Translations under genes and position numbers: made by a program
Source: an uncultured virus (IMG/VR IMGVR_UViG_3300020048_000049)
Lineage: Duplodnaviria; Heunggongvirae; Uroviricota; Caudoviricetes
Length of the DNA stretch: 57,420 nt
Direction: 5' to 3' (one strand)
Virus record (IMG/VR): IMGVR_UViG_3300020048_000049
Shown: piece by piece, positions 1,427 through 52,988 of the stretch
Position numbering within the stretch: the first letter of the stretch is position 1
How the letters are laid out: every line of letters starts with the position of its first letter
The notes under the pieces: model-generated
The model's database searches: none
Told to the model about the DNA's origin: nothing
What the model saw: the letters and a program-made list of their open reading frames with translations, nothing else

Positions 1427-1488
1427 ATAAACAGAAAGACCCCGAAAATGTAATAAGTTCGGCAGGGTTAATCCGCTCCTACCTTATA
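1427..1488 (+). ncRNA. Repeated structured small-RNA-like unit, copy 1 (CCGA/TCGG variant)
   Basis: Class I element, then core GGCAGGGTTAATCC...CCTTATA and T-run. Confidence 0.55.
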
Positions 1489-1643
1489 CTTTTTTTTGTT
1501 AAAATTTGGCTTTTCTTTTTTTTCTTTTTGTTGACCTATAAAGGTATAAGACAAACAAACAGAGTTTAATTTTAAAATAAAACAAATTCTTTTTTTTCTT
1601 ATTGTTGACCTATAACCATATAAACCACATAAACCAATATACT

Positions 1644-2207
1644 ATGAAAAATGTAATTTTATCAAAAAATCAATTAATTGCTGAATTAAGCGAATTTCGC
1701 AAAAATGTTTCAGCTACGGGAACGGCTTTTGGTTCTGTTGTTTACTTTGTTGACGAATCGGGTTCAAAAACAGTAAACAAGCAAAAAGTGTTACAAAAGT
1801 TGGTACGAGTTGCTATTACTTTAGGCTCTAACTACGAAGGACGTATCAATAGAGATTTAGTAAAAAATGAAGAAGAAGCAAATTTTACAGCACAATCAAT
1901 GAGTGGTAAAAAACACTTAAATGATGAAGGGGTTTTATTAACTGATACAAAAACAGAAACTAAAATTTACCTTAATGCAGTGGTTGAAAATCATGCTAAA
2001 CCCGATACAATTTACTTTCACGAAGGTAAGCGTATTAGCAAGGCTGATGCAATCGAGAAAGGTTTATTTATGCCTTCTTACTTCACTGAAAAAACAACAA
2101 TGGGGCGTGGCAATATGAGCGATGCAAAGGACTTTCACATTATCAATACGAATTTAGATAATGTTATTAGTATTACTTTAAACAAGGTAAAACGAATAGT
2201 AAAATAA
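1644..2207 (+). CDS. Hypothetical protein, paralog of 13185-13775
   Basis: Shared YFxDESGSxTVNKQKxLQKLVR and LFMPSYFT...GRGNMS blocks. Confidence 0.85.
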   Translation: MKNVILSKNQLIAELSEFRKNVSATGTAFGSVVYFVDESGSKTVNKQKVLQKLVRVAITLGSNYEGRINRDLVKNEEEANFTAQSMSGKKHLNDEGVLLTDTKTETKIYLNAVVENHAKPDTIYFHEGKRISKADAIEKGLFMPSYFTEKTTMGRGNMSDAKDFHIINTNLDNVISITLNKVKRIVK

Positions 2208-2213
2208 TAAGAT

Positions 2214-2242
2214 AGGGGGTTAAAATCCCCTTTCTTTTTTTT
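2214..2242 (+). terminator. Intrinsic terminator whose T-tract is the start of the next class I element
   Basis: AGGGGG-ttaaaa-TCCCCT followed by TTCTTTTTTTT. Confidence 0.7.
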
Positions 2243-2729
2243 CTTTTCTTTGACCTATAATAATATAACCAATCAAACTCTCCCTTATGAAATCAAATAT
2301 TAAAATTTTTATTGCATCTTCAATTTCATTCTTAGTAATTGTTAAATTGGTAATGGATTTTTTTGAGGTGAATTAAGTATCTCTCCCTTTCTTTTTTTTA
2401 AAAACTTTGACCTATAATAATATAACCAATTAAACTCTCCCTATATGCAAAAAATATTAGAATGTTCGTTAATTATAATAAGTAGCTTTAAAGGTTTCGT
2501 TTTATGCGGAATTGTAATTAGTTTAACTGTTGCGCTATTGTTATTTTAATTCTTTTTTTAAAAAACTTTGACCTATAATAATATGCGAAACAAAAACTTA
2601 AGGTAAAGATAGCCTACGACCAACTCTCCCTCTGTGAGAAACGCCTTTGTGCAAAATGTTTGTGAGTTAAACCACAAAGTACCCGCTGAGAAATTAGCGG
2701 GATTTTTTTATATCTCTCCCTAAAAAAAA

Positions 2730-2798
2730 GTTTGTTGCAGGGGTGGATTAACCCTGCCCATTTTGGGGGTAAGCTCCAGTGGCAAACTGTCTGCTTAT
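2730..2798 (-). ncRNA. Repeated small-RNA-like unit, copy 2 (inverted)
   Basis: Reverse complement of ATAAGCAGACAGTTTGCCACTGGAGCTTACCCCC...GGCAGGGTTAATCC, with its own minus-strand class I element. Confidence 0.6.
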
Positions 2799-2919
2799 AT
2801 TATTATAGGTCGTGTTTTTTAAAAAAAAGAAAAACTCTCCCTATTCTTTTTAGATTAAAACAAAATTCTTTTTTTTATTATTGTTGACCTATAATATTAT
2901 AACCAAGCAAACTAAAACC

Positions 2920-3114
2920 ATGGAAAATAACAGCAACATATTAATCAAAGGTATTGAGTTAACAGATGAGCAAAAGTCTTTATTAACATTCAGAGGTATG
3001 AGCAATCCTAAATTTGTTAAGAATCATTCTTTTTATTTCAAGGATGGTAAACCTTCAAATGAAGTTGGATTTATTTATCCCGTATGCCATTCATTTTCAC
3101 ATTTACCTTATTAG
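2920..3114 (+). CDS. Hypothetical protein
   Basis: ORF between class I elements. Confidence 0.7.
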   Translation: MENNSNILIKGIELTDEQKSLLTFRGMSNPKFVKNHSFYFKDGKPSNEVGFIYPVCHSFSHLPY

Positions 3115-3183
3115 TATTTCTTTTTTTTAATATCTTTGACCTATAATAATTTAACTAAACAAATAAAACTAAATAAATATATT

Positions 3184-3579
3184 ATGAAGATTATTTTAGA
3201 CAATGAAGAGAGTGAAAAGTTTTTCCATAATGCTTTATGCAATTCAATGGGAGAAGTATGTAGTTATGGTTTGTCTCTTGACTATTCAGATAAAGAGTAT
3301 AAAGCAGCCGTTAAAAAATTAAAAGAGGAAAGTCCAAATTCAGTTGTTTGTCGTGAAGATGTTTGGATGCAAATATTAAAAGATGGTGGCTCTTTAACCC
3401 TTACTGATGATGAAGATGAAGATGGAGAAAAGAACACTATAACATTAGCAGATGTTCATAAAAAAGTTAATGAAGTAGAGGATAGGCATTTGACTGATAT
3501 GGCAAATGAAAATGATGATGCATATACGGGAGATGCAATAATACAAACAGTATTTTTTGGAGAGATAGTTTATGGTTAA
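3184..3579 (+). CDS. Hypothetical acidic phage protein
   Basis: ORF ending DAYTGDAIIQTVFFGEIVYG. Confidence 0.8.
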   Translation: MKIILDNEESEKFFHNALCNSMGEVCSYGLSLDYSDKEYKAAVKKLKEESPNSVVCREDVWMQILKDGGSLTLTDDEDEDGEKNTITLADVHKKVNEVEDRHLTDMANENDDAYTGDAIIQTVFFGEIVYG

Positions 3580-3697
3580 GCAATAAGATAATTTATGTTT
3601 GGTTTAAAAAGCGTTGGGGTGGTAGCCAACAAAAGATAGAGACAAGGTTTAAACTTTGTCTCTTTTCTTTTTTTTATTTTTTCTGACCTATAAAGAT

Positions 3698-3770
3698 ATA
3701 ACAGAGAGATGCCTTACCAAGCAGAATCTACCTCCAAAACTGGGCAGGGTTAATCCACCTCTACCTTATA
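3698..3770 (+). ncRNA. Repeated small-RNA-like unit, copy 3 (diverged)
   Basis: Core GGGCAGGGTTAATCCAC..CCTTATA after class I element. Confidence 0.5.
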
Positions 3771-3845
3771 TTTTTTTTACAACTCTCCCTTTTCTTTTTT
3801 TTATTTTTTATGACCTATAAAGATATAACCAAACAAACTGAAATT

Positions 3846-4058
3846 ATGGATATTATGTTAGCTATTGTAATGGAACAACAAATAGTTCCAAGCAAAGAAA
3901 ATTTAACTTTTGAGGAAAAACAAGAATTAGCAATGTTATCAGTTTTTAAAGTTATCAACGTTAAACTTGATGAAGAACAACAAATTAAATTTGATTCTCT
4001 TATGATGAAAAAATTTGCCTTTGATTTATATAACAAAAAGCAAATTGCATTTAATTAA
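3846..4058 (+). CDS. Hypothetical protein
   Basis: ORF between class I elements. Confidence 0.7.
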   Translation: MDIMLAIVMEQQIVPSKENLTFEEKQELAMLSVFKVINVKLDEEQQIKFDSLMMKKFAFDLYNKKQIAFN

Positions 4059-4091
4059 TTCTTTTTTTATTAATCCTTGACCTATAATAAT

Positions 4092-6867: not shown

Positions 6868-6920
6868 TTGAAGGGGCGCAAAGCCCTTTCTTTTTTTTCT
6901 TTTCTTTGACCTATAAAGAT

Positions 6921-6989
6921 ATAAGCAGACAGTTTGCCACTGGAGCTTACCCCCAAAAATGGGCAGGGTTAATCCGCCCCTACCTTATA
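6921..6989 (+). ncRNA. Repeated small-RNA-like unit, copy 4
   Basis: Full consensus copy after class I element. Confidence 0.6.
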
Positions 6990-7149
6990 TTTTTTTTTGT
7001 TAAAATTTGACTTTTCTTTTTTTTCTTTTCTTTGACCTATACGTTTTATGATTTTGTTTTATTTTAAATAAGTTTGTTTAGATTGAAACTAAATTCTTTT
7101 TTTTACGTATGATGACCTATAAGGATATAACCAATTAAAACTTAAAGAC

Positions 7150-8103
7150 ATGGCACACAATTTAAATGAAAAAGATGGCAAAACTAGTTTTGCAAGTACT
7201 GAAAACGCTTGGCACGGTTTAGGGCAAATCGTTGAAAAAGCAATGACTTCTGAAGAAGCTATTAAATTAGCTAATTTGGATTATGACGTAGTAAAAGAAC
7301 CAATTTTTTGCGAAGGGCAAAATGGTATCGGCTCGGTTATTCCAAATAACTTTGTAACAAAACGCACTGATAACAACGAGATTTTTGGAATCGTTGGGAA
7401 TCGTTACGAAATTGTTCAAAACCGTGATGCCTTTGGATTTTTTGATGCTATTGTTGGAACGGGACAAGCAATTTTTGAAACGGCAGGAGTTTTGGGCAAA
7501 GGGGAACGCATTTTCATATCTGCAAAAATGCCTTCATACGTTCGTATTAACGGCACTGATGATGTAACAGAGATGTATACCATGTTAACAAGCTCACATG
7601 ATGGCACGGGGGCAGTAATTGCAGCTATTACGCCTATTCGTGTGGTGTGTCAAAACACTTTAAAAATGGCTTTAAAGGATACGAAAAACAAAATTTCTAT
7701 TCGCCATACGACAAGTGCAGAATCAAAATTGGCAGATGCTCACAAATTATTAGGGATTGTTAACACTTATACAGAGGCTTTAAATGCTTCGGTTAACCAA
7801 CTCGCCCTAAAAAAAGTTTCTGACTTGCAAGTTAAAAACTTAATTGCTGAGTTATTCCCTAGCGATGCAAAGGTTGAAACTCGAATTACAAATATTCGTG
7901 ATGCAGTTTCTAAGTCGTATTTTGAGGGTGTTGGACAAGAAAAAGTTTTAGGTACAGCGTGGGGGTTCTTAAATGGTGTTACTCACTACTTAAGCCACGA
8001 AAAAGAGTACAAAGACTCTGACACTAAGTTTGAGAACCTTGTAATGGACGGGGCAAGCTCAAAGGTAACAGATAGAGCAATGGAATTATTAATGGCTTTA
8101 TAA
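7150..8103 (+). CDS. DUF932 family phage/plasmid protein (TIGR03299-like)
   Basis: AWHGLG, YEIVQNRDAF, FETAGVL, SSHDG, TPIRVVCQNTL, IRHT and GTAWGFLNGVT motifs. Confidence 0.9.
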   Translation: MAHNLNEKDGKTSFASTENAWHGLGQIVEKAMTSEEAIKLANLDYDVVKEPIFCEGQNGIGSVIPNNFVTKRTDNNEIFGIVGNRYEIVQNRDAFGFFDAIVGTGQAIFETAGVLGKGERIFISAKMPSYVRINGTDDVTEMYTMLTSSHDGTGAVIAAITPIRVVCQNTLKMALKDTKNKISIRHTTSAESKLADAHKLLGIVNTYTEALNASVNQLALKKVSDLQVKNLIAELFPSDAKVETRITNIRDAVSKSYFEGVGQEKVLGTAWGFLNGVTHYLSHEKEYKDSDTKFENLVMDGASSKVTDRAMELLMAL

Positions 8104-8349
8104 GGCTTAAAATGAAGGGGGGAGTTTTTAACTCTCCCTTTCTTTTTTTTCTTTTTGTTGACCTATAGAGATAGGAATCAATAAAATGAAAAACATGGAA
8201 AATCAAGAAGCACAATTGTACACTTTTCACGCTCCTATTTTAACTGCAAATGCAGTATCTAGTATGAGCAAGTAAAAGCAAAGTGTTAAGAGAATAGCGA
8301 AGGGATTAGGAACCCTTCGCTTTTTTATTTACTCTCCCCAGAAAAAAAG

Positions 8350-8416
8350 TATAAGGCAGGTGTGGATTAACCCTGCCCAATTTGGGGGTAGACTCCGAGT
8401 GGCAAACTGTCTGTCT
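8350..8416 (-). ncRNA. Repeated small-RNA-like unit, copy 5 (inverted)
   Basis: Reverse-complement copy with minus-strand class I element. Confidence 0.6.
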
Positions 8417-8524
8417 GATTATATAGGTCTCCCTTTTGAAAAAAAAGAAAGTTTGTTTTAATTTAAAAAGAATTCTTTTTTTTCTTATTGCTGACCTATA
8501 AGTTTAACCAAACAAACCAACGCC

Positions 8525-10559: not shown

Positions 10560-10755
10560 AAAGATTTTTTAGTTTGGTTTGTAAAGTGTTGGGGTGGTAG
10601 CCAACAAAAAGATAGAGACGGGATTTATTTCTCGTCTCTTTTCTTTTTTTTAAATTCTATGACCTATAAAGATATAAGCAGACAGTTTGCCACTAGGAGC
10701 TTACCCCCAATTTTGGGCAGGGTTAATCCGCTCCTGCCTTATACTTTCGTTTGGC
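10560..10755 (+). repeat. ~195 bp near-identical duplication with 11471-11664 (two hairpins, class I element, small-RNA unit)
   Basis: AAAGATTTTTTAGTTTGGTTTGTAAAGTGTTGGGGTGGTAGCCAAC...CTCGTCTC is identical in both; diverged copy at ~3586-3778. Confidence 0.9.
10674..10743 (+). ncRNA. Repeated small-RNA-like unit, copy 6
   Basis: Full consensus copy. Confidence 0.6.
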
Positions 10756-10833
10756 TAATTTCTTTTTAGATTTAAAATTCTTTTTTTTCTTTTTGCTGAC
10801 CTATAATAATATAACCAACCAAAACTAAACGAT

Positions 10834-11175
10834 ATGAAAATTGGAGAAACAATAAACGTAGAAGAATTTAAAAAAGGTCGTATTTTTGATACAAAAGAAA
10901 TGATTGATTTTCTTATGTCACATAGACAAAGATTTTGGTGTTGGGGCTCAACAGCTTGGAGAATTATTACTAACAATAAAGAGCAGATAGCTTTAAGATT
11001 CGAGGTAAGTGGTTTATTGTTTCAAGGGCATGTTTACATACGTTGTAATTATATGGATAACATAGATGTTTATTTTGTAAATACAACAGGTACTATTGTA
11101 AACACATTAGAGGATATTGGTATAGAAAACTTATTTGATTGTATGGACGAAATTATAGAAATAAAAAGACGTTAA
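10834..11175 (+). CDS. Hypothetical protein
   Basis: ORF between elements. Confidence 0.8.
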   Translation: MKIGETINVEEFKKGRIFDTKEMIDFLMSHRQRFWCWGSTAWRIITNNKEQIALRFEVSGLLFQGHVYIRCNYMDNIDVYFVNTTGTIVNTLEDIGIENLFDCMDEIIEIKRR

Positions 11176-11235
11176 TATTTTCTTTTTTTTAAATAACTTG
11201 ACCTATAATAATATAACCAAATAACACTATATAAT

Positions 11236-11472
11236 ATGCCACTAATTAAACTAACATCAAAAAGATTTAAAGAATACGGCAAGAACGAGTTTAATATTAA
11301 CCCTATATTATTAGGCACTGAGCAAATAATAAAAGTAGAAAGAACTACTTTATCAAGTGGCTCATTTAAACTTGAATGCACTCAAATAGCAAGTGTTGGC
11401 GCTATGGTAACAACAAATTATGTTACTGAGACAATTGAAGAAATTGAAAAAATTATAAAGAAAGCAAAATAA
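11236..11472 (+). CDS. Hypothetical protein, weak FlbD-like pattern
   Basis: LIKLT...IIKVE...YVTETIEEI. Confidence 0.6.
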   Translation: MPLIKLTSKRFKEYGKNEFNINPILLGTEQIIKVERTTLSSGSFKLECTQIASVGAMVTTNYVTETIEEIEKIIKKAK

Positions 11473-11584
11473 AGATTTTTTAGTTTGGTTTGTAAAGTGT
11501 TGGGGTGGTAGCCAACAAAAAGATAGAGACGGGATTTATTTCTCGTCTCTTTTCTTTTTTTTATTTTCTCTGACCTATAAAGAT

Positions 11585-11652
11585 ATAAGCAGACAGTTTG
11601 CCACTGGAGCTTACCCCACAAAGTGGCAGGGTTAATCCGCTCCTGCCTTATA
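11585..11652 (+). ncRNA. Repeated small-RNA-like unit, copy 7 (CCAC/GTGG variant)
   Basis: Identical to copy 10 at 31965. Confidence 0.6.
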
Positions 11653-11738
11653 TTTTCGTTTGGTTAGTTCTTTTTAGATTTAAGGTTCTTTTTTTTCTTT
11701 TTATTGACCTATAATAATATAACCAAACAACCAAAGAT

Positions 11739-12128
11739 ATGAAAATCAACTTAATCGAAGTACCCACTCCAATGTTTAGTGAAATGCAATTATTTGCTAA
11801 CCCTGATTTAGAGCTTTTAAAAGAGAAAAAAACTATCCGTGTATCTGTACGCCAAAAAACTAAAACACGCATCTCAACGTCTATGACTTTAGGCAAGGCT
11901 TGTGTTAGAATTAACTTTCCAATGGAAGGATTTAAAACTCACAGTGAAAGTAGTTTAAATTATGGCACTTGCGAGAACGAGTCAAGTGATTATTTTGTAA
12001 AGTCCGCTAAACAAGATTTAAACGTGTATAAAGAGTATTTAAAGAAAGTTATTGAGCATATTGTAAAGGATATTTTTAAAGTTGAATTAGATGAAATTAC
12101 AATAGAATTAGAAGCTAAAAACTTCTAA
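11739..12128 (+). CDS. Hypothetical protein
   Basis: ORF between elements. Confidence 0.8.
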   Translation: MKINLIEVPTPMFSEMQLFANPDLELLKEKKTIRVSVRQKTKTRISTSMTLGKACVRINFPMEGFKTHSESSLNYGTCENESSDYFVKSAKQDLNVYKEYLKKVIEHIVKDIFKVELDEITIELEAKNF

Positions 12129-12161
12129 TTCTTTTTTTCTTTTTTAATGACCTATAAAGGT

Positions 12162-12231
12162 ATAAGACAGACAGTTTGCCACTGGAGTCTATCACCGAAA
12201 AGGGTTAGGATTAATCCGCTCCTGCCTTATA
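12162..12231 (+). ncRNA. Repeated small-RNA-like unit, copy 8 (diverged core)
   Basis: CAGACAGTTTGCCACTGGAG...TAATCCGCTCCTGCCTTATA. Confidence 0.55.
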
Positions 12232-12326
12232 TTTTCGTATTGATAAAATTTGTTTTTAGATTTAAAGCAATTCTTTTTTTTCTTTTCTTTGACCTATAAT
12301 AGTATAACCAACTAAACAAACGTATT

Positions 12327-12959
12327 ATGAAACAAGATGCAGTTAAGGAAATTAGAATTGAGAATAAAATTTTAAGAATTTTCCAGGATACATATGGCGA
12401 TGACCCTCGTACTTGGGATAACCTTGCAAAGATGATTTTTGTTGGCAAACATAAAGGCTTGGGTGACAAACATGACTTTGTTTTTGAAGGATTTTATAAT
12501 GGACGTCAAGATTTTATTGAAAAAGGGGAAATTGAATTGAGAAAACATTTTAAGGATGTTGCAGTTATTAAAGCCGTACATTTATACGAGCATAGCGGTA
12601 GTTCAATTTCAACAAAATTTGAATATCCATATGATTGTCATTGGGATTCAGGCACTATTGGCTTTGCAGTTATTACAAAGACTGATATTAAAGAAAATTT
12701 TAGTGTTAAACGTGTAACAAAGGCTTTATTAGAACAAGCTGAACGTATTTTGGAGGGGGAAATTGAAACGCTCGACCAATATATTACAGGGGACGTTTAT
12801 CGCTTTGAAGTTGTAAAAGTTTCTAAATGCGAACACGACCATGAGCATGAAGAGCATGAGGATAGCTGTGGAGGCTTTTACGGCAGTGATTTTGCCAACA
12901 ACGGTATAACTGACCATATTTCAGATGAACGTCTTAGAGAAGCTTTAAAAGCAGCTTAA
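12327..12959 (+). CDS. Hypothetical phage/plasmid protein
   Basis: LYEHSG, WDSGTIGF, YITGDVY and DSCGGFYG motifs. Confidence 0.85.
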   Translation: MKQDAVKEIRIENKILRIFQDTYGDDPRTWDNLAKMIFVGKHKGLGDKHDFVFEGFYNGRQDFIEKGEIELRKHFKDVAVIKAVHLYEHSGSSISTKFEYPYDCHWDSGTIGFAVITKTDIKENFSVKRVTKALLEQAERILEGEIETLDQYITGDVYRFEVVKVSKCEHDHEHEEHEDSCGGFYGSDFANNGITDHISDERLREALKAA

Positions 12960-13021
12960 AACGAAAGGGGGATTTAACAAGTCTCCCTTTCTTTTTTTTC
13001 TTTTCTTTGACCTATAATACT

Positions 13022-13091
13022 ATAAGCAGACAGTTTGCCACTAGGAGCTTACCCCCAATTTTGGGCAGGGTTAATCCGCTCCTACCTTATA
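13022..13091 (+). ncRNA. Repeated small-RNA-like unit, copy 9
   Basis: Full consensus copy. Confidence 0.6.
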
Positions 13092-13184
13092 TTTTTTTTT
13101 GTTAAAATTTGTTTTTAAATTAAAACAAATTCTTTTTTTTCTTTTTGCTGACCTATAAAGATATAACCACATAAACCAAACGAT

Positions 13185-13775
13185 ATGAAAACTAAAAGAG
13201 AAAAATTCGAAAAAGCAGTAGTAATTTCTACTAAACAATTAATTGATATTTTTGTGAATGAGGATAAACAATCTACGTTTAAAGGTTGTCAATTCGCTCA
13301 CATAGTATATTTCACTGACGAAAGTGGTTCTCGTACTGTAAACAAGCAAAAGGCTTTGCAAAAGTTGGTACGTACTTGTATTACAGTTGGCTCGTCTTAT
13401 CAAGATAGAATCAATAGAGATTTAGAAAAACGTGGGGAAGAGGGGAATTTTACTTCTCAATCTCAAAGTGGGCAAACTCCAATCAACAAGTATGTATCTC
13501 AATCTGACAAAAGTCAAAAGTACAATTTGAAAGCAGTGGTTGAATATTTCAACACTCCTGACACTATCTATTATGAAAATAATAAAGTAAGACACTTCAA
13601 AGATAATTTGGATAAAATTAATTCTGACTTGTTTATGCCGTCTTATTTCACTCCTTCTACTACAAGTGGACGAGGGAATATGAGTGAGGAAAAAGACTTT
13701 AGCTTTTTCACTGTGGGCTTTGATAAGATTTATTCTTTAAGAATCAAAGGAATTTTATATAAGGTAGAAAAATAA
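13185..13775 (+). CDS. Hypothetical protein, paralog of 1644-2207
   Basis: Shared sequence blocks. Confidence 0.85.
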   Translation: MKTKREKFEKAVVISTKQLIDIFVNEDKQSTFKGCQFAHIVYFTDESGSRTVNKQKALQKLVRTCITVGSSYQDRINRDLEKRGEEGNFTSQSQSGQTPINKYVSQSDKSQKYNLKAVVEYFNTPDTIYYENNKVRHFKDNLDKINSDLFMPSYFTPSTTSGRGNMSEEKDFSFFTVGFDKIYSLRIKGILYKVEK

Positions 13776-20124: not shown

Positions 20125-20198
20125 GGTTCCTTAGCTCATTTGGATAGAGCAACAGCCTTCTAAGCTGTGGGTGATTGGTTCGAATCCAATAGGGACTA
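20125..20198 (+). tRNA. tRNA-Arg(TCT)
   Basis: Acceptor GGTTCCT/AGGGACT; anticodon arm ACAGC-CT-TCT-AA-GCTGT; T arm ATTGG-TTCGAAT-CCAAT. Confidence 0.95.
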
Positions 20199-20268
20199 CG
20201 ATTAAAAAGCCAGGATAAATTCTGGCTTTCTTTTTTTTTTAAATCCTGACCTATAAATAAAAAACAAT

Positions 20269-29195: not shown

Positions 29196-29762
29196 ATGAA
29201 ACCGATGCAAATAGAAATAGGAGAATGGTGGTATAAAGGTTGTTTTATACAAAAACAAGACCATCCACAATTAGCTAAATATGTTATATTTGCTGACACA
29301 AAAGGGCAGGAACATATCAATACAGCTTGGACTTTTGCTGAAGCTAAGAAGATTGCTTCTGATAATGAAGTAAAGGAATATAATTTAGGCATTGAAGCAT
29401 TTGGTTTTAAAAAACCAACAGCAAAGAAACTTAAACAATACAGGATACACATGATGTACCGAGGAATGCAACCTACATATGTTGTATGTGCATATACTAA
29501 AAAAGAAGCTTGTGAGCTGTTAGATATATCAATGGGTTACCTTAGCGGTTATGCTAATGTAACAGATGAGCCAAATGAACAGGTATGTATTGATAACCCA
29601 CATAAGGTTTATGCTTGTCTTGACAGCGGAGAGTTTATGTATGTGCATAAGGAATTGATGCGTGTTTATATGCCTAGAGAGGAATTACACACATTGATAG
29701 AAGCGCACAGGAAAAAGTACCCAACATACCAAGATATGTTAAATGCTTTAAAACTAGATTAA
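29196..29762 (+). CDS. Hypothetical protein
   Basis: Long ORF in a three-gene unit. Confidence 0.8.
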   Translation: MKPMQIEIGEWWYKGCFIQKQDHPQLAKYVIFADTKGQEHINTAWTFAEAKKIASDNEVKEYNLGIEAFGFKKPTAKKLKQYRIHMMYRGMQPTYVVCAYTKKEACELLDISMGYLSGYANVTDEPNEQVCIDNPHKVYACLDSGEFMYVHKELMRVYMPREELHTLIEAHRKKYPTYQDMLNALKLD

Positions 29763-29953
29763 TGGACAAATACCCAAAAGATAAAGAGCTAGAGGGCATA
29801 TACGTCAAAAGATGTAAGTGTGGCGCAAGACCTTATTATGATAGGGTTTGCAGCGGAGGTGGTGGCGAGTGGATTGCATGTAATTGTGGCAGGACTGGTG
29901 AAAGTGGATTGACTAAACAGGAAGCTATTGATAATTGGAATGCAGCTAAATAA
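29762..29953 (+). CDS. Lar-like restriction-alleviation protein
   Basis: KRCKCG...IACNCG...TKQEAIDNWN pattern. Confidence 0.65.
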   Translation: MDKYPKDKELEGIYVKRCKCGARPYYDRVCSGGGGEWIACNCGRTGESGLTKQEAIDNWNAAK

Positions 29954-31812: not shown

Positions 31813-31964
31813 TTCTTTTTTTAAAGTTTGCGGACCTATAAGAATAAAAGCGGCCATAAGGCCATAAAGATAATAAATTGTTAATGGGGGTTAACAATGA
31901 GAGGGGCCATCTTCGCAAGGAGTTGGCCTCTTTCTTTTTTTTCTTTTTGTTGACCTATAATAAT

Positions 31965-32032
31965 ATAAGCAGACAGTTTGCCACTGGAGCTTACCCCACA
32001 AAGTGGCAGGGTTAATCCGCTCCTGCCTTATA
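31965..32032 (+). ncRNA. Repeated small-RNA-like unit, copy 10
   Basis: Identical to copy 7, which lies 20 kb away. Confidence 0.6.
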
Positions 32033-32210
32033 TTTTCACTTTGGCTATAATAAGTGGTATAAAAAATATATTTATAGCCAATTCTTTTTTTTCTTTTTGT
32101 TGACCTATATAATTGGTGCATAATATTTTATAAATTTACTATATGTCTGCAGTTTTCTTTTTTTTCTTTTTGTTGACCTATAACAATATAACCTCTAAAA
32201 AACTAAAGAT

Positions 32211-33002
32211 ATGAAAACTGAAAAAAGAAAGCCATTATTAAGTACAAATAATGCTAAAACAATCAAAGGCGCAAAATTAGGCTATATTACATATATCCTT
32301 TATATGTCACCTTTCAAGCTAAACAGTCAAAAGAAAAATGTATGTAGCCATGCATCTAAGGGCTGTGTTGAAAGCTGTTTAGTTGGTAGTGGCTTTGGCG
32401 GTATGTTTACTGCTGTTATGGCAGGTCGTGTGGCTCGTACTGAGTACTTCTTAAAAAACAGAATTGAGTTCCTTAACCAGGTTAAAACTGAGATTGAAAA
32501 AGCTTTAAAAAAGAATAAAGATAAAGCAATTGTAACTATTCGTTTAAATGGTACGTCCGATATTCCATACGAAAATTTACGTGTGTTTGAGGGAAATAAA
32601 AATATCTTTGAGATGTTTCCAAAAGTAAAGTTTTACGATTATACAAAAAACTATTTACGTTTTGATAAACCTTTACCAAAAAATTATACCTTAACTTTCA
32701 GCCGTTCTGAAACTAATCACGACAAGGCAATGGAAATTTTAGCTCGTGGTTTTAATGTAGCAATGGTTTTCGACAAAACTCCTAAAAAGTTTGAAGGTTA
32801 CAAGGTTATTAATGGGGACAAGGACGATTTAAGATTTAAAGACACTAAAAATGTTATTGTAGGTTTACGTTATAAAAAAATGACTGGCAAAGGTGCTGAT
32901 AACTCAAAAGCATTCACTAGTGGCTTTGCTATCAAAACAAATAATGTAATAGCTCTCCCTGTAGTTAAGAAAGCTAAGCAAAAATTAAGAAAGGCAGCAT
33001 AA
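32211..33002 (+). CDS. GP88-like phage protein
   Basis: NVCSHASKGCVESCL, IRLNGTSDI, FYDYTK, LTFSRSE, NVAMVF and GDKDDLRF motifs. Confidence 0.75.
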   Translation: MKTEKRKPLLSTNNAKTIKGAKLGYITYILYMSPFKLNSQKKNVCSHASKGCVESCLVGSGFGGMFTAVMAGRVARTEYFLKNRIEFLNQVKTEIEKALKKNKDKAIVTIRLNGTSDIPYENLRVFEGNKNIFEMFPKVKFYDYTKNYLRFDKPLPKNYTLTFSRSETNHDKAMEILARGFNVAMVFDKTPKKFEGYKVINGDKDDLRFKDTKNVIVGLRYKKMTGKGADNSKAFTSGFAIKTNNVIALPVVKKAKQKLRKAA

Positions 33003-39293: not shown

Positions 39294-39296
39294 TAG

Positions 39297-39369
39297 TAAC
39301 CCATATCGGAATCGAACCGATATTCCAAGCTTGAGGGGCTTGTTTCCTATTCCATTAGAAGAATGGGTC
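39297..39369 (-). tRNA. tRNA-Glu(CTC)
   Basis: Acceptor GACCCAT/ATGGGTT; CAAGC-CC-CTC-AA-GCTTG; ATCGG-TTCGATT-CCGAT. Confidence 0.9.
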
Positions 39370-39374
39370 ATTTG

Positions 39375-39445
39375 TAGCGCCACGGATAATTGAAATCCGA
39401 TTTACGAGGTGAAAGCCCGTTGTCCTACCCTTAGACGATGGCGCC
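39375..39445 (-). tRNA. tRNA-Glu(TTC), atypical T arm
   Basis: GGCGCCA/TGGCGCT; ACGGG-CT-TTC-AC-CTCGT; CGGAT-TTCAATT-ATCCG. Confidence 0.85.
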
Positions 39446-39453
39446 ATTTTTTG

Positions 39454-39527
39454 TATCCCTGACGGTAATCGAAACCGCATCTGCTGATTGAAAGTCAACT
39501 ATCCTGTACCACTTAGAAGACAGGGAC
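39454..39527 (-). tRNA. tRNA-Glu(TTC), atypical T arm
   Basis: GTCCCTG/CAGGGAT; GTTGA-CT-TTC-AA-TCAGC; GCGGT-TTCGATT-ACCGT. Confidence 0.85.
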
Positions 39528-39723
39528 AAATTTATATATAAAAAAAAAGAGGCAATCATTTCTGACTACCTCTCGCAATAAGTGGGCTTCACACCCTAAA
39601 CTTCCTTATTAACACAAAGCATAGCCAGTAACTAGAGTTTCCTCTTGTTCGGCTAAACGTTCTATGTTAATTAAATTTCTCATTTTGTTTTGTTCTTTTT
39701 ACTTTTTGTGTTCTTTGGTCTTG

Positions 39724-39797
39724 TAGCAGGAGAGCGATTCGAACGCCCGATTTCCACATTATGAGCGTGGTGAGATAAACCCCTTCTCCATCCTGCA
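39724..39797 (-). tRNA. tRNA-Met(CAT), initiator-like
   Basis: TGCAGGA/TCCTGCT with 1:72 mismatch; A11-U24; CCACG-CT-CAT-AA-TGTGG; TTCGAAT loop. Confidence 0.9.
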
Positions 39798-43902: not shown

Positions 43903-43956
43903 AATAAAAAGAAAAACATTTGATTTTTATATCTCTTAATATTATATTTTATATAA

Positions 43957-44030
43957 GAAGAGGTAGCTCAGGTGATAGAGCAATAGTTTGAAACGCTATG
44001 TGTCGCTGGTTTAACTCCATGCTCTCTTCA
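43957..44030 (+). tRNA. tRNA-Phe(GAA), degenerate or pseudo
   Basis: GAAGAGG/TCTCTTC; ATAGT-TT-GAA-AC-GCTAT; irregular T arm GCTGG-TTTAACT-CCATGC. Confidence 0.7.
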
Positions 44031-46571: not shown

Positions 46572-46602
46572 TTTGTTGGGAGATTTTTTTTTAATATATT
46601 TG
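46572..46602 (+). promoter_or_regulatory. Bacteroidota sigma-A-type promoter
   Basis: TTTG-N19-TATATTTG. Confidence 0.55.
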
Positions 46603-46605
46603 TAC

Positions 46606-47667
46606 ATGGCAAAAAAACCCGACATAGGCTCCAAAGAATTTACAAAGCTGCTTGAGCAAACAGCTCATCTCCCTCATAAAAATTACATCAAACGAATTGA
46701 CTCGAAGATGTTTTCTTTAGATTTAAATAAAGTTTATAATTATAAACCAGAGCTACTTGCCATTAAAGAATTCATTCGCTGTGTAGATTTGCTACAGGCT
46801 AGAAATCCTGGAATCTCCCTGCAAGATGCTGCCTTAAGAATCCCTGGCGTACAAAAACTGATAATAAAAGCTGAGTCTCCCCACAGGCCAAAGCTCGAAG
46901 AGCTGGCTATAAATACCATTAGAGAAATATATCAGGTCCCTGAATATATTGATATGAAAGTTTTTATCCAGCCAAGACTCTCCCTGGATACTGAACAGGA
47001 CCATAACCCTGATTCCTTTCTAGGATTAACTCTGGAACAAAAGAATAATATGAGAGATGAAATACAGAAGCGAGTTATCCTGAACGGGCTGGTTCACGGA
47101 AGCAGCATGCATGTCTGGAAAGAAATTTATTATTTGGTATCCAGTGAGCTGGACGAAATCTCTTCAGACTTAAAAGAACTTTATGATTACTATACCTCAA
47201 CACTTGGAATTCAATTATGGTTAATGGACCCAGATGAGTTTCAGGAAACGATTGAAGAAGGAAATCAGATGACTCAAGGATTTAATGAGCTGAAGTTTGA
47301 TAAACAAAAAGGATTTGGTGGACAGGTCCAGGCTAAGGCAATTAATTTCCCTGTCCTGCTTCATGAACTTAATAAAGGAGTCATCGACTGGTTAATATCT
47401 GGCGCCATTCCAAAAGAATATTCTGAAGAAGAATTAAAATATTATTATTCTAAAGCTGATGACTATATCAATGAACCCTGGCATTATACGCTGTCTCCAA
47501 CACTTTGGTCAGGCCTGTTGGATGTGGCTAAGGTGCCAAATGAAAAAATTCCTAAATTAATTTCACATTTAGTGAAACTTTCTTACGAAGAACTCGTACA
47601 ACTGTTTCGAATGATTCAGGATTCACCTGAACAGGCAACTCAAAAAATTAAAGGATGGAATCTCTAA
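46606..47667 (+). CDS. Hypothetical large-phage protein
   Basis: 353 aa; KRVILNGLVHGSS and FPVLLHELNKGV motifs. Confidence 0.85.
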   Translation: MAKKPDIGSKEFTKLLEQTAHLPHKNYIKRIDSKMFSLDLNKVYNYKPELLAIKEFIRCVDLLQARNPGISLQDAALRIPGVQKLIIKAESPHRPKLEELAINTIREIYQVPEYIDMKVFIQPRLSLDTEQDHNPDSFLGLTLEQKNNMRDEIQKRVILNGLVHGSSMHVWKEIYYLVSSELDEISSDLKELYDYYTSTLGIQLWLMDPDEFQETIEEGNQMTQGFNELKFDKQKGFGGQVQAKAINFPVLLHELNKGVIDWLISGAIPKEYSEEELKYYYSKADDYINEPWHYTLSPTLWSGLLDVAKVPNEKIPKLISHLVKLSYEELVQLFRMIQDSPEQATQKIKGWNL

Positions 47668-48164: not shown

Positions 48165-48881
48165 ATGAAAACTACTGAAAACAAAAAAGCAAAACAAGTT
48201 GAACAAGTAGCACTTGATAAAGCGTGTGCAACCGCAATGCAAACAGGAACAAAATCTGAGGCAAGCAATGCTTTCAATCAATTATATAAGCGTTACAATA
48301 AAGCGATTACTTTTGAGTTAATGAAATTCGTTAAGGCTGACAAAGAAGTAATTGAAGATTTGACGCAAGAAGTTTTTATCAAAGTATTTGAGAAAATCAA
48401 TACATATAATTTCTCTGTTGTTTTTTCAACTTGGTTATACAAAATTGCACACAATCACGCAATTGATTACAAGCGTAATGATAAAGTTGAAATATTAAGT
48501 GTTGAGAAATTATCTAAAGGATTTAATGGAGATGAGGATTCTGGTGAGTTATCTTTTCAACTTAAAGATTTAACTATTCAAGAGTTCCAAGGCTTAGAAA
48601 GAAAAGAACGTGCTGAAATGGTTCTTGATGCCTTAGCAAACATTAAGTCTGATGATGCAAGACAAATCGTTAAGTTATTATTTCTTGAAGATATGTCTTA
48701 TGAGAAAGTAGCCGAAGAAGTTAAAATGCCTTTAGGTACAATCAAAGCATTAATGTTTCGTGCTAAAGAAGAGATGAAAAATTATCTTTCAGTTAAAAGA
48801 AAAGATTTCGAATACGGTAGACTTTGCACCACAAAATTAAAAGTTACACACCGTGAAACTGAAGATGTAGAGTTGTCATAA
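48165..48881 (+). CDS. ECF-type RNA polymerase sigma-70 factor (SigW-like)
   Basis: Region 2: AFNQLYKRY...EDLTQEVFIKVF...FSTWLYKIAHNHAIDYKR. Region 4: MSYEKVAEEVKMPLGTIKALMFRAK. Confidence 0.95.
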   Translation: MKTTENKKAKQVEQVALDKACATAMQTGTKSEASNAFNQLYKRYNKAITFELMKFVKADKEVIEDLTQEVFIKVFEKINTYNFSVVFSTWLYKIAHNHAIDYKRNDKVEILSVEKLSKGFNGDEDSGELSFQLKDLTIQEFQGLERKERAEMVLDALANIKSDDARQIVKLLFLEDMSYEKVAEEVKMPLGTIKALMFRAKEEMKNYLSVKRKDFEYGRLCTTKLKVTHRETEDVELS

Positions 48882-50061: not shown

Positions 50062-50067
50062 TTAATT

Positions 50068-50661: not shown

Positions 50662-50668
50662 TAAGCCT

Positions 50669-50696: not shown

Positions 50697-50714
50697 TAAA
50701 GAAATTAGATAATT

Positions 50715-51188: not shown

Positions 51189-51189
51189 T

Positions 51190-51417
51190 ATGCATGTACT
51201 AGATTTAATAATGTATTTCGTTTGTGTTGCCGCTATTTGGGGCATCATGGAATTCGGATGGAAAGGAAATATCACACAGGAAATTGGTGGTCTTATAGGG
51301 ATGTTTGTCATAATTATATTTACAATTATATACATAATCTTTTTTGTACTGGCAGGTTATAACTGGTGCGACTTTAATATTAATTGGACTGCTGTGTCTG
51401 GCTGGTTCAAATGGTAA
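51190..51417 (+). CDS. Small membrane protein
   Basis: Two hydrophobic segments. Confidence 0.7.
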   Translation: MHVLDLIMYFVCVAAIWGIMEFGWKGNITQEIGGLIGMFVIIIFTIIYIIFFVLAGYNWCDFNINWTAVSGWFKW

Positions 51418-51428
51418 ATTAAAATAAT

Positions 51429-51626
51429 ATGGTTGTAAATATTGTAACAAAAACTGTAACACTCAATAAGCTGGACATGACAGGAGAATCCTGGAGAGGT
51501 GATGTATACGGCATAAAGTTTAAAGATGTACGTACAGATACAAAAAAAGAAATAGAGCAGCTTGCTGGTTATAAAGTAATTTATGCCCATAGGAATAAAA
51601 AAGTGTTAATGATTTATAATAAATAA
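51429..51626 (+). CDS. Hypothetical protein
   Basis: ORF ending before the next element. Confidence 0.65.
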   Translation: MVVNIVTKTVTLNKLDMTGESWRGDVYGIKFKDVRTDTKKEIEQLAGYKVIYAHRNKKVLMIYNK

Positions 51627-51674
51627 ACAGGATTCTTTTTTTAAGAATCTTTGACCTATAAATAAAAAAACAAT

Positions 51675-51908
51675 ATGAAAACTACACTTCCAGACAATGT
51701 GATGACACAGATTTCTGATATCACAGAGAATAAACTTAAAAAAAACAATATCCCATTCACAAGAAATGATACTGTTTTTGATTTAAAAAAAGAACATCAA
51801 ATGAAACTTATGCAATTTCAAAGCGAGGCTACACTGGAATTGGTAGAGTCTGGTGTTATTACTCCAGAAATGATTGAAGCTGAAATGAAAATGTTTGCAC
51901 GTGGATAG
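51675..51908 (+). CDS. Hypothetical protein
   Basis: ORF after element. Confidence 0.7.
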   Translation: MKTTLPDNVMTQISDITENKLKKNNIPFTRNDTVFDLKKEHQMKLMQFQSEATLELVESGVITPEMIEAEMKMFARG

Positions 51909-52119
51909 CAAATACAAAGACAGGGTTGACGCCTGGCGTCAAGATACAGAGTTGGTAGTTCATAAACATATCTTTGGTAACTGGTCCGTAAGAGGAAACG
52001 TTACCAATTTCTTTTATAAGCTGGAGATGGATGAGGATAAAGCAAATACATATGCGGCAGAGCTAAACAGGAACAAAGTCAGTGAACAAGATATTTTTTT
52101 AAAAGATTTGCAATATTAA
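51895..52119 (+). CDS. Hypothetical protein
   Basis: Overlaps upstream stop; start uncertain. Confidence 0.55.
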   Translation: MHVDSKYKDRVDAWRQDTELVVHKHIFGNWSVRGNVTNFFYKLEMDEDKANTYAAELNRNKVSEQDIFLKDLQY

Positions 52120-52138
52120 AATATTTGTTATATATTTG
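52107..52138 (+). promoter_or_regulatory. Bacteroidota sigma-A-type promoter
   Basis: TTTG-N20-TATATTTG. Confidence 0.7.
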
Positions 52139-52243
52139 TCCTGTTGTAAAAAATTATAATTTTGTTTTCATATGCACTTAGTAAAGTTTACAACAACAAG
52201 AAATCCTGCCTGAAAGACTGCCTGGTCCTACAGGATGTGGAAT

Positions 52244-52278
52244 AAAAAAACCCCTGATGTACGAGTCAGGGGTTTTTT
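52244..52278 (+). terminator. Intrinsic terminator (possibly bidirectional)
   Basis: AAAAAAACCCCTGA-tgtacgag-TCAGGGGTTTTTT. Confidence 0.8.
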
Positions 52279-52334
52279 GTTTTGACTGTTTACTGTCAAT
52301 GGTCAAATTGCTTTAGATTTAAATAAAAATACCT

Positions 52335-52362
52335 GAAACTTTTTTAAGTTTTTTACGTACAA
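52335..52362 (+). promoter_or_regulatory. Class II ECF-type promoter
   Basis: GAAAC-N16-CGTACAA. Confidence 0.65.
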
Positions 52363-52463
52363 AGAAGTCCACGGGAGTTAATGACTCCTGAAATTATTTC
52401 CTGGTTCTGAGCTGTACTTGCAAAGCGTGGCGAAAGTTCCAGGGAATTTTTTATCGTATCACT

Positions 52464-52493
52464 ATCGGATATTATCGGATATTATCGGATATT
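52464..52493 (+). repeat. Tandem repeat (ATCGGATATT)x3
   Basis: Read directly. Confidence 0.85.
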
Positions 52494-52589
52494 CTTTTTT
52501 TTATAATACCTGACCTATATAATTGGTGCCCATAACTTTTATTCAGGATTCTACTTTTCTTTTTTTTAAATAACCTGACCTATACCAAT

Positions 52590-52742
52590 ATGAAACCAGA
52601 CTTTACAAAACTAAAATACTACAGCGAGTCAGCGTACTGCTGTCCAAGCTGCGGAACCCCTTCTAGTGAATGTGAGAGCAATGGAAACTGGGGTTACATC
52701 TGTTCTAACTGTGGTGAGGATTTTGAAACTCCTGATACATAG
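52590..52742 (+). CDS. Small zinc-ribbon protein (50 aa, leaderless)
   Basis: Translated by hand; CPSC and CSNC pairs. Confidence 0.65.
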   Translation: MKPDFTKLKYYSESAYCCPSCGTPSSECESNGNWGYICSNCGEDFETPDT

Positions 52743-52777
52743 GATTCTTTTTTTTTAAATCCTTGACCTATAATAAT

Positions 52778-52838
52778 AGAAACACAAAGACCCCGACTTG
52801 AAATAGACTCGGCAGGGTTAATCCACCCCTGCCTTATA
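52778..52838 (+). ncRNA. Repeated small-RNA-like unit, copy 11 (CCGA/TCGG variant)
   Basis: AAAGACCCCGA...TCGGCAGGGTTAATCC, as in copy 1. Confidence 0.55.
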
Positions 52839-52892
52839 TTTTCCTCCGAGATTCTATTTTTCTTTTTTTCCTTTTTCCTGACCTATAATAAT

Positions 52893-52988
52893 ATGAGCTA
52901 ACATCCACATATATTACGGCAGGCAGTTTATCACTGAAGCCCACCCCACAAAAAAAATGTGGCAGGGTTAATCCACTCCTGCCTTATA
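52893..52988 (+). ncRNA. Repeated small-RNA-like unit, copy 12 (extended 5' end)
   Basis: CCACA/TGTGG stem plus conserved core. Confidence 0.5.

Follow-up and report, generated by a model that had tools for sequence, protein, structure and literature searches.

A candidate phage small RNA family with covarying helices, present in twelve dispersed copies in an uncultured Caudoviricetes genome

Twelve copies of a non-coding unit

We analysed a stretch of 57,420 nucleotides (nt) from an uncultured member of the Caudoviricetes (IMG/VR record IMGVR_UViG_3300020048_000049), hereafter the window, which is part of a phage genome and carries twelve dispersed copies of a short non-coding unit. The window has a G+C content of 32% and consists almost entirely of small plus-strand genes, with 15 open reading frames (ORFs) of at least 180 amino acids (aa). 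A different genetic code was considered as the cause of the small number of long ORFs and was rejected: removing single stops gave no coherent gain, and the genes are truly small. The word GACCTATAA occurs 112 times (108 plus, 4 minus; for instance, within 1154-52888), against 0.47 expected, and precedes nearly every small gene, with a hairpin and a TTTCTTTTTTTT run 5' of each occurrence. An ATG-led ORF of at least 30 aa lies 18-60 nt downstream of 73 of the 123 GACCTATA sites, and the position of GACCTATAA suggests that it is a promoter. Terminator-like sites, consisting of a hairpin and a T-run, number 38 in the first 14 kb against 6.4 expected, a sixfold excess, and stand just 5' of GACCTATAA words. 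Taken together, the excess of promoter-like words, the spacing of the ORFs and the excess of terminator-like sites indicate that the window is a string of putatively self-promoted, self-terminated single-gene cassettes.

The units were delimited by two approaches. Allowing at most two mismatches, the 12-mer CAGGGTTAATCC matched the window 13 times against 3.0 expected, a number that 0 of 100 shuffles reached; eleven matches were exact, and that at 12206 has two mismatches. The match at 47023 on the minus strand was set aside as chance, being unconfirmed by the covariance model and having no other feature in common with the units. This model, for which 70 long-form members were used, was applied to the window without filtering and returned exactly 12 hits, scoring 43.3-91.2 bits; a further 45 hits were listed, none of them above 15.9 bits (E ≥ 0.089). 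The 12 hits fall on the twelve copies listed in an earlier, sequence-only reading of the window, and the box AATCCRCNCCTRCC occurs in the window only within them.

That reading had also described a promoter element before each copy and an end at CCTTATA before a T-run in most, and both descriptions hold, with promoter activity being a prediction. Eleven copies have an exact GACCTATAA at their 5' side, the copy at 8350(-) having GACCTATAT instead, and eleven end in CCTTATA and a T-rich run, the copy at 2730(-) ending in CAACAAAC and T8. The plus strand carries ten units; the other two are inverted, and their own promoter with them, as the same reading had noted. A further promoter-like element lies between every plus-strand unit and the next ORF, and the closest pair of units, with starts 115 bases apart, has one such element for each. 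This tandem pair (units 11 and 12) stands at the end of the plus-strand gene block, facing minus-strand genes. The orientation of the units is independent of that of the genes.

Structure and covariation

The RNA can be divided into a 5' hairpin (helices P0 and P1), absent from some forms, and a 3' part containing helix P2. Its structure was assessed in an alignment, fitted to the model, of 127 matches (123 distinct) from 100 sources, namely the window and 99 loci; duplicates and loci judged to be chance were left out. Most members had been gathered with an exact-core pattern. The core is therefore invariant in part by construction, and few variants were available for testing the outer P2 stem and the 3' hairpin described below. 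In P1 and P2 (10 pairs), 97.3% of 1089 cells were paired, compared with 74.5% in shuffles, and 233 cells showed double changes, compared with 72; 0 of 500 shuffles reached either value, and pairing dropped to 8-56% when the partners were slid. These statistics come from a structure-fitted alignment, which favours pairing. RNAalifold, applied to an unfitted MAFFT alignment, also returned the inner stem of P2 with compensatory changes. Mutual information revealed a pair between leader and linker (A-U, G-C, C-G or U-A) that is Watson-Crick in 90% of 114 sequences. As a helix of four pairs, P0 is 62.8% paired against 43.6% in shuffles, with 91 double-change cells against 40, and it closes P1 over an internal loop with nearly invariant purines on its two sides (AGA and GA). 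P0, P1 and P2 covary, and the structure is under selection.

P2 consists of ACC, a stem of 3-4 bp, a free loop, the returning stem, a CAG bulge (UAG, UCG, CUG, CGA or CAA in some members) and GGU. The sequence-only reading had reported covariation of the inner stem (CCCA/TGGG, CCAC/GTGG, CCGA/TCGG), which was confirmed and extends to the outer ACC/GGT pairs, since three members from three different phages have AUC/GAU in place of ACC/GGU, a compensated change. The ACC that it placed at the start of the core is present in most copies; the copy at 12162 instead has ATC with TAGGATTAATCC, a compensated variant of ACC with CAGGGTTAATCC. Wobble pairs in P2 were of the G-U or U-G kind in 21 cells and of the A-C kind in none, and therefore it is the transcribed-sense strand that folds: an RNA, not a DNA hairpin. 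A further helix (P3, GGAGC/GCTCC) enclosing P2 was rejected, as the same linker occurs with ACUCC, GCCCC and ACCCC and there is no covariation.

The sequence UAAUCC, 3' of P2, is unchanged in all 123 distinct members, which is partly forced by the search pattern and holds also in copies found by the model only. It is followed by R (A 79, G 44), C, N (U 59, C 48, A 15, G 1), CCU, R (G 101, A 22), CC and a tail of the form NNAWAYUYU. The alternative 3' hairpin proposed in the sequence-only reading, GGCAGG/CCTGCC, can form: as GGCAGGG/YCCUGCC, 90% of its cells are paired among the 123 distinct members. It lacks the support of covariation, with compensatory change in 0 of 7 pairs and its pairing matched in 275 of 500 shuffles. 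RNAalifold and single-sequence folding favour a slipped form of this hairpin, in which GGGU pairs with RCNC, or with RC-CC with N bulged, and UAAUCC becomes a hexaloop. Such slippage would account for R being a purine throughout (U-A or U-G) and for the freedom of N. The 3' hairpin competes with the outer ACC/GGU pairs for one G-G-U, within the common segment GGCAGGGU; evaluated energies were +3.7 to -4.9 kcal/mol for the structure with P1 and P2, and -2.5 to -13.5 kcal/mol for the 3' hairpin. Two states of the 3' module are supported, one by the AUC/GAU variants and the other by the purine rule.

In 11 of the 12 window copies TTATA(T/C)TTT lies downstream of the hairpin, which would be a possible intrinsic terminator. 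A terminator consensus scan did not call the 3' hairpin on the unit strand, its loop limit being 3-8 nt and the loop here being 9. Many members have no U-run straight after the hairpin (tails CCAAAC, AATAAACTCTCCC), and in many relatives 5-6 non-U bases precede the U-run.

Other hairpins are found on the same box in relatives. One is an 8-bp hairpin followed by UAAGAG-UAAUCC-ACUCCUGCC, without any CAGGG, and another is a small hairpin followed by GGUGCAG-UAAUCC-ACNCCUGCC. Three loci (G005:C23, L154 and L162) have two modules in series within one unit, the second being a 7-bp hairpin and then GG-U(A/G)(A/C)AAUCC-RCCCCUGCC. From these fusions to one box, the minimal constant element appears to be a hairpin followed by YAAUCC-RCNCCUGCC.

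Distribution of the family

Beyond the window, the family was sought with a degenerate 20-base core pattern, CAGGGTTAATCCRCNYCTRC, which gave 4 loci in IMG/VR contigs (88-189 kb), 20 in genome contigs, where one genome was scanned for each of 185,579 species, and 112 in metagenome contigs. The 146 pattern sites outside the window comprise approximately 129 family members and 17 chance-like sites, a division made by eye on the presence of the ACC-hairpin. All members in genome contigs lie in contigs of 2.6-54 kb from metagenome-assembled genomes (MAGs) that resemble co-binned phage, with labels that include Saccharibacteria, Woesearchaeota, Elusimicrobiales and Crocinitomicaceae. In the genomes of these 185,579 species the pattern hit no isolate chromosome and no array-like locus, the remaining hits being single chance sites. 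A plain 14-mer scan of viral contigs had been tried and abandoned in favour of CAGGGTTAATCCRCNYCTRC, as it gave mostly chance matches: 6 of 119 stretches passed a crude filter (at least two flank marks), and by eye three of these were members (L020, L061, L116) and three were one unrelated hairpin.

Four subtypes recur across phages. Type 1 has 5' AGAGAGAUGCCUUACCAAGCAGAAUC and type 2 has 5' CAGACAGUUUGCCACUGGAGY; the short form is without the 5' hairpin and has UGAAA in its P2 loop; the fourth is 5'-extended. The window contains one unit of type 1, eight of type 2, two short and one 5'-extended. Members stand behind different promoter variants (GACCTATAA, CAATCTATAA, CACCGTATAAG, CCCTATATA and CGCTATA), and therefore it is the RNA body that is conserved, not the cassette. 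Each of the 88-189-kb relatives has 2-3 model matches at E ≤ 0.01, compared with 12 copies in the window; one match in each is a full-length copy (42-79 bits) and the others, of 21-23 bits, cover the 3' box only, relative G002 having in addition a second, diverged short-form unit at 30.5 bits. Tandem pairs were found in other contigs too, and about 10-15% of the units outside the window have an orientation opposite to that of their neighbours. Among 111 distinct units with at least 100 nt of downstream sequence, the first signature downstream was a same-strand promoter in 60, an opposite-strand promoter in 11 and neither in 40, and 15 of the 111 have an inverted GGGAGAG mark. A search for tRNA genes at 15 flanking loci of relatives found none.

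At least half of the sampled words of a 2.6-kb stretch of the window were present in two DNA sequencing runs, and parts of it in 18 more, mostly lake, freshwater, sediment and subsurface metagenomes from 14 studies. Metagenome contigs of relatives (runs X1 and X3, compared with 10600-13200 of the window) continue across units, where type 1 or a short form replaces the type 2 of the window, and assemblies break at units; the subtype swaps at the same loci would fit cassette exchange between strains. In the 189-kb relative, two tandem copies of another promoter-driven unit of ~75 nt (TTGGTGCCTATTACTTTCGTAAG...; G002:C1:176200-176450, locus L278, minus strand) immediately precede the small RNA, which suggests a small-RNA gene cluster.

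No catalogue that we consulted contains the family. Rfam 15 at gathering thresholds gave only five tRNA hits over the whole window, and its E-value mode, run on unit 4 and eight diverse members, gave only sub-threshold, unrelated hits, the best being RAGATH-23, which reached 24.6 bits where 92.6 are required and lies next to the unit on the opposite strand. A DNA search for near and distant matches with 6.4 kb against 50,697 phage records returned no match. Full-text literature searches with the core sequence in four spellings listed only matches on unrelated topics, as judged without opening the texts. The units thus appear to form a new family within the phage small non-coding RNAs, with a mechanism that is proposed from sequence, and the failure of the sequence-only reading to recognise them is borne out.

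Genomic context

The coordinates of the units and of other features are collected in Table 1. Homologues of window proteins were found in G005 (contigs C16 and C23), G001 and G002. A 364-aa protein gene, the sigma factor gene, a few small genes, the small-RNA pair and the TGTTAATAAC stretch follow one another in this order in the window, G001, G002 and G005:C23, and this conserved order suggests that the block-end pair is probably the ancestral locus and the other ten copies an expansion in the lineage of the window. The 364-aa protein has 259 homologues at E ≤ 1e-5, of which the best 120 listed share 51-91% identity; some are on contigs of up to 538 kb, and close ones on several contigs of 55-60 kb, approximately the size of the window. 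It is a core gene of this phage clade. Its predicted model is of good quality (pLDDT 86.5, pTM 0.85), and it had no match in Pfam, PHROG, Atlas (best 0.89) or PDB folds; as a partner protein suggested by synteny, this neighbour of the sigma factor was dropped on those grounds.

In both G005:C16 and the window, a unit lies directly upstream of homologues of a 187/196-aa family and of a 210-aa family. The DUF932 gene also lies downstream of a unit in both, with one small gene between them in G005:C16. A promoter-like element separates the unit from each such gene in the window and in G005:C16 alike.

Directly after the last unit, TGTTAATAAC occurs four times (0.49 expected) and AAACTCTGTTATGGTGCT twice; TGTTAATAAC adjoins the small-RNA cluster in G002 and G005:C23 too. 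The group of TGTTAATAAC and AAACTCTGTTATGGTGCT words looks like iterons, an operator or an origin region. Three copies of an intergenic element, GTTGGGGTGGTAGCCAACAAAAG, which forms a small hairpin and is followed by a terminator hairpin, each lie directly upstream of a small-RNA unit, where chance would place none. Each of two gene-less cassettes is located between a small-RNA unit and the gene that follows, and combines a promoter-like element, an ORF-free segment of ~45-70 nt, an A/T hairpin and a T-run.

Table 1. Positions of the twelve units and of other features in the window.
Feature	Position	Strand	Form or description	Model hit (bits)	Core	Details
Unit 1	1414..1500	+	short form, without 5' hairpin; long P2 loop	1419-1494 (44.8)	CAGGGTTAATCC, 1463-1474	GACCTATAA 1414-1422; box GCTCCTACC; CTTATAC and T-run
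Unit 2	2720..2811	-	inverted; long form, type 2	2725-2798(-) (76.7)	2756-2745	GACCTATAA 2811-2803 (minus); tail CAACAAAC and T8, then AGGGAGAG
Unit 3	3685..3785	+	long form, type 1 (5' AGAGAGATGCCTTACCAAGCAGAATC)	3701-3776 (91.2)	3745-3756	box ACCTCTACC
Unit 4	6908..7005	+	long form, type 2	6921-6995 (84.2)	6964-6975	followed by gene-less cassette, then DUF932 gene
Unit 5	8340..8429	-	inverted; long form, type 2	8344-8418(-) (87.0)	8375-8364	promoter variant GACCTATAT
Unit 6	10661..10755	+	long form, type 2	10674-10749 (80.2)	10718-10729	three-copy element GTTGGGGTGGTAGCCAAC upstream, at 10588
Unit 7	11572..11665	+	long form, type 2; P2 inner stem CCAC/GTGG	11585-11658 (79.2)	11627-11638	
Unit 8	12149..12245	+	long form, type 2; compensated outer stem ATC/GAT	12163-12237 (79.6)	TAGGATTAATCC, 12206-12217	
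Unit 9	13009..13105	+	long form, type 2	13022-13097 (81.1)	13066-13077	
Unit 10	31952..32045	+	long form, type 2 (CCAC/GTGG)	31965-32038 (79.5)	32007-32018	upstream of GP88-family gene
Unit 11	52765..52850	+	short form	52772-52844 (43.3)	52813-52824	first of tandem pair ending plus-strand gene block
Unit 12	52880..53000	+	5'-extended form (leader GAGCTAACATCCACATATA...)	52915-52994 (68.2)	52963-52974	followed by cluster of TGTTAATAAC words
Three-copy element GTTGGGGTGGTAGCCAACAAAAG	3613-3635, 10588-10610, 11499-11521					
Gene-less cassettes	~1533-1600, 7034-7110					
DUF932 gene	7150-8103					
tRNA gene	20125-20199	+				
Zinc-finger-like ORF	29762-29953		63 aa; two Cys pairs (CKCG...CNCG)			
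GP88-family gene	32211-33002					
tRNA gene cluster	39296-39797	-	three tRNA-Glu and tRNA-Met			
tRNA gene	43956-44029	+				
364-aa protein gene	46573-47667					
Sigma factor gene	48165-48881					
Small-RNA pair	52778, 52893					
TGTTAATAAC stretch	52998-53248					
HNH/endonuclease VII-like ORF	53296-53730					after early block
N run	53991-54021					after early block
gp23-like match	55087-55383	-	short match to major head protein			after early block

Possible functions of the units

We tentatively favour the view that the units are stand-alone early small RNA genes, amplified for dose, whose product titrates a protein. Each would encode a structured RNA of ~60-100 nt. Its transcription is probably early and driven by the promoter-like element of the unit, and its end is probably at the T-rich tail of the unit. 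In this RNA an optional 5' hairpin (P0 and P1) precedes a constant 3' module of bulged hairpin, invariant UAAUCC, RCNCCURCC and A/U tail. This module may switch between (i) the full bulged hairpin with a single-stranded C-rich tail and (ii) the 3' hairpin with UAAUCC in its loop. The promoter-like elements belonging to the units and to the genes downstream of them, the inversions, the tandem pairs and the two-module units argue for an independent gene with a product that would act in trans. Further, the invariant loop or single strand, together with a bulged hairpin that is weak and nevertheless maintained, both repeated within RNAs and across copies, points to a docking site for a host or phage protein, which would be titrated or escorted. 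The phage lineage would have amplified the gene from 1-3 copies to 12, raising the dose; the two-module units, the fusion of different hairpins to the same UAAUCC-RCNCCUGCC box and the number of copies relative to the matches in relatives fit such a role. CsrB and RsmZ, which titrate a protein, display many short GGA motifs in loops or single strands, some 20 sites per RNA. The units resemble these sponges in repeating a short, here putative, binding motif that raises titration capacity, and differ from them in that the motif is UAAUCC...CCUGCC and in that multiplicity comes from gene copies, with at most two modules per RNA. A more specific, joint version of this idea, which we regard as unlikely in all its parts together, is an RNA-based tool for takeover or counter-defence, working as a modular decoy or adaptor in a large clade of freshwater phages. 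Up to 12 early genes would supply the constant module in great quantity, and it would trap a conserved RNA-binding factor of the host, for instance a defence nuclease, a termination factor or a global RNA chaperone; through its variable 5' hairpin, each isoform among the four conserved subtypes would have a second partner of its own.

Several observations weigh against small RNA genes of this kind. A canonical sigma-70 scan of the window gave 60 sites against 62.6 expected, and GACCTATAA does not fit the consensus. Pfam families among the 127 window ORFs surveyed include no RNA-binding partner for the RNA, and none of the 23 listed sequencing runs is on record as RNA; one of them, at first taken for RNA, is probably DNA, and three that were compared with the window consist of contigs. 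The ends of the RNA are placed from promoter geometry, the covariation of P0 and the T-run. Single-sequence folding energies are unremarkable (z +0.82 to -2.61), because of which the case rests on covariation. Finally, the covarying P2 overlaps a stronger 3' hairpin, which is the layout of an attenuator, and the three unit-gene adjacencies common to the window and a relative (51-64% protein identity) could mean control in cis.

These last points are the strength of a different explanation, possible and in our judgement less probable, in which the unit is a cis-acting conditional terminator: its promoter would produce a short leader in which P2 serves as antiterminator, overlapping a terminator hairpin, and a protein, or the RNA acting on RNA polymerase, would decide between stopping at the T-run and reading through downstream terminators. 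It would resemble attenuators of the RAT/BglG type, HK022 put, lambda nut or the lambda PR'-tR' gate. Since P2 has GGCAGGGU in common with the 3' hairpin, the two cannot both form fully; P2 is covarying yet weak, the stronger 3' hairpin has a U-rich tail, a promoter-like element stands immediately 5' of the unit, the sequence downstream is rich in terminator-like sites, and units precede homologous genes in the window and G005:C16. In RAT/BglG/SacY attenuators, a weak bulged antiterminator hairpin likewise overlaps, with its 3' half, the 5' half of a stronger terminator hairpin. The likeness to the G-G-U shared by the outer stem of P2 and the 3' hairpin is one of layout only; the downstream genes here have their own promoter-like elements, the terminator is without covariation, and there is no CAT/PRD-type antiterminator among the 127 ORFs, which represent part of a genome. 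HK022 put is a promoter-proximal RNA of ~65-70 nt with two stem-loops, and lambda nut a hairpin with a conserved single-stranded box, both upstream of terminators. Compared by description, not by sequence, the units share this layout, and 8 of the 12 fit an operon orientation upstream of terminators. Two of the remaining four are inverted against the gene flow and two end the block in tandem, facing convergent genes; a fresh promoter-like element follows each unit, and no N-, Q- or Nun-like protein was recognised in the window. Inversion elsewhere in the family, the many tails lacking a U-run directly after the hairpin and the absence of compensatory change in the 3' hairpin also speak against a terminator, as do tandem and two-module units, which make little sense in cis, and the 5' hairpin with its conserved internal loop, to which such a terminator gives no role.

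The titrating small RNA genes that we favour have to be weighed against three further explanations. That the RNA regulates by base pairing, with UAAUCC in its loop or the C-rich RCNCCUGCC as a seed for a G-rich site in a host or phage RNA, is rather improbable. The most invariant letters do lie in a loop or single strand, and phage mRNA leaders are G-poor, so that a G-rich target would stand out. However, a duplex scan with the box over both window strands gave a best energy of -27.6 kcal/mol, against shuffle bests down to -25.4, which is not clearly beyond shuffles, and the site lies inside the coding, zinc-finger-like ORF of Table 1; a phage-encoded RNA target was rejected on this basis. The 16S rRNA of a MAG relative was no better a target than for shuffled queries (18 and 19 of 60 shuffles equal), and pairing of the core with the helix-24 loop of 16S rRNA, complementary with a 3-base gap, was likewise dismissed (-10.5 kcal/mol in MAG relative L296; 18 of 60 shuffled cores equal or better). 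Three box positions (R, N and R) vary freely, which is odd for a seed. Multicopy, seed-bearing small RNAs do exist in Bacteroidota: FopS and GibS of Bacteroides, as outlined in PMC11697453, are paralogous short RNAs with their own promoters that bind RbpB, a global RNA-binding protein, FopS having 12-15 copies per genome (one copy in a phage), a 5' single-stranded seed and a terminator, and being deposited in Rfam according to its authors. The units share with that description the multiple short RNAs with a promoter each and, by weak indication, the host phylum; they differ in matching no Rfam family and in having their constant part, including a bulged hairpin, at the 3' side.

It is very improbable that the unit acts as DNA, the near-palindrome GGGTTAATCC with promoter and T-run being a protein-binding or recombination cassette and the RNA a by-product, in the manner of the PeSL cassettes of T4-type phages or of a site linked to the TGTTAATAAC cluster. 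In unit 8, GGATTAATCC is a perfect palindrome; other subtypes occupy the same loci in contigs of relatives, assemblies break at units, and TGTTAATAAC words crowd behind the last one. PeSLs, as outlined in PMC2839356, combine a strong early promoter and a terminator stem-loop that flank small genes in hyperplastic regions and drive shuffling, and the 112 promoter-like elements and terminator excess of the window resemble them. This likeness concerns the setting, not the RNA body: the PeSLs so described are without a conserved RNA body, whereas the unit has 60-100 nt of covarying RNA between promoter and T-run. A site in duplex DNA does not explain three covarying helices with wobble on one strand, the conserved part is far larger than a protein site, and subtypes are conserved between distant phages, so that the mobile DNA hairpin suggested in the sequence-only reading is disfavoured. 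Least probable of all, in our estimate, is a mimic of a host-defence RNA, that is, of a CRISPR repeat (an RNA anti-CRISPR) or a type III antitoxin, soaking up a Cas protein or toxin; both had been offered by the sequence-only reading, and neither found support. The units do resemble the Racrs outlined in PMC10651486, small non-coding units that are solitary in viral genomes and titrate a protein, in being single promoter-driven viral units (promoter activity here predicted), in many copies, of a hairpin with constant flanks. Unlike what is outlined there, they keep one sequence across many phages, have an extra covarying 5' hairpin and reach 12 copies, and no CRISPR repeat like the core, nor any CRISPR-like array, was hit by CAGGGTTAATCCRCNYCTRC in the scanned genome collection, where true members among the 20 loci lie in short phage-like MAG contigs, spaced hundreds of bases or more. 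That the family is conserved in phages whose promoters differ suggests that its target is found in many hosts and is not the repeat of a single host. ToxI-like antitoxins are tandem direct repeats of ~36 nt beside an endoribonuclease toxin gene, whereas the units are dispersed, with no tandem 34-36-nt repeats and no adjacent ToxN-like or Cas ORF; Pfam found neither a Cas nor a toxin family among the 127 ORFs.

The description of an amplified, promoter-driven non-coding RNA unit with a covarying hairpin is thus supported and extended to a widespread phage family. Phage-encoded small RNAs with a dose-dependent action, among them RNA anti-CRISPRs and antitoxin mimics, have come to notice only recently and have been sampled sparsely. 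The present family has about 130 members, three helices kept by compensating changes and an invariant core; its occurrence is limited to uncultured freshwater phages and phage-like contigs that were binned into MAGs, and one lineage has amplified it to 12 early genes. It may serve as a marker for a phage clade with a common sigma-factor module. If the RNA is a decoy, it would be a new kind of RNA weapon; if it is a conditional terminator, it would show by what means phages made up of self-promoted single-gene cassettes set the timing of their early genes.

Other features of the window

Nine of the 127 window ORFs match Pfam families at E ≤ 0.001, including DUF932, GP88, a sigma-70-type factor, a UVR motif and a 34-residue gp23-like stretch. 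A Bacteroidota host is hinted at by G-poor leaders without a Shine-Dalgarno sequence, distant matches to crAss-like phage proteins, and Atlas and NCBI labels. ARAGORN and Rfam located six tRNA genes in the window, none of them at a unit; the two on the plus strand are tRNA-Arg and tRNA-Phe. The zinc-finger-like ORF holds the best chance complement to the box. The word CTCTCCC has 42 plus-strand copies (for instance, at 2278, 8132, 14158 and 33592) and none on the minus strand; some copies make up the 3' arm in a terminator hairpin (GGGAG...CTCCC), others are solitary and 5' of a T-run, and others again are placed between the T-run and GACCTATAA. Its exact complement, GGGAGAG, is found at the 5' end of some type 1 RNAs in relatives.

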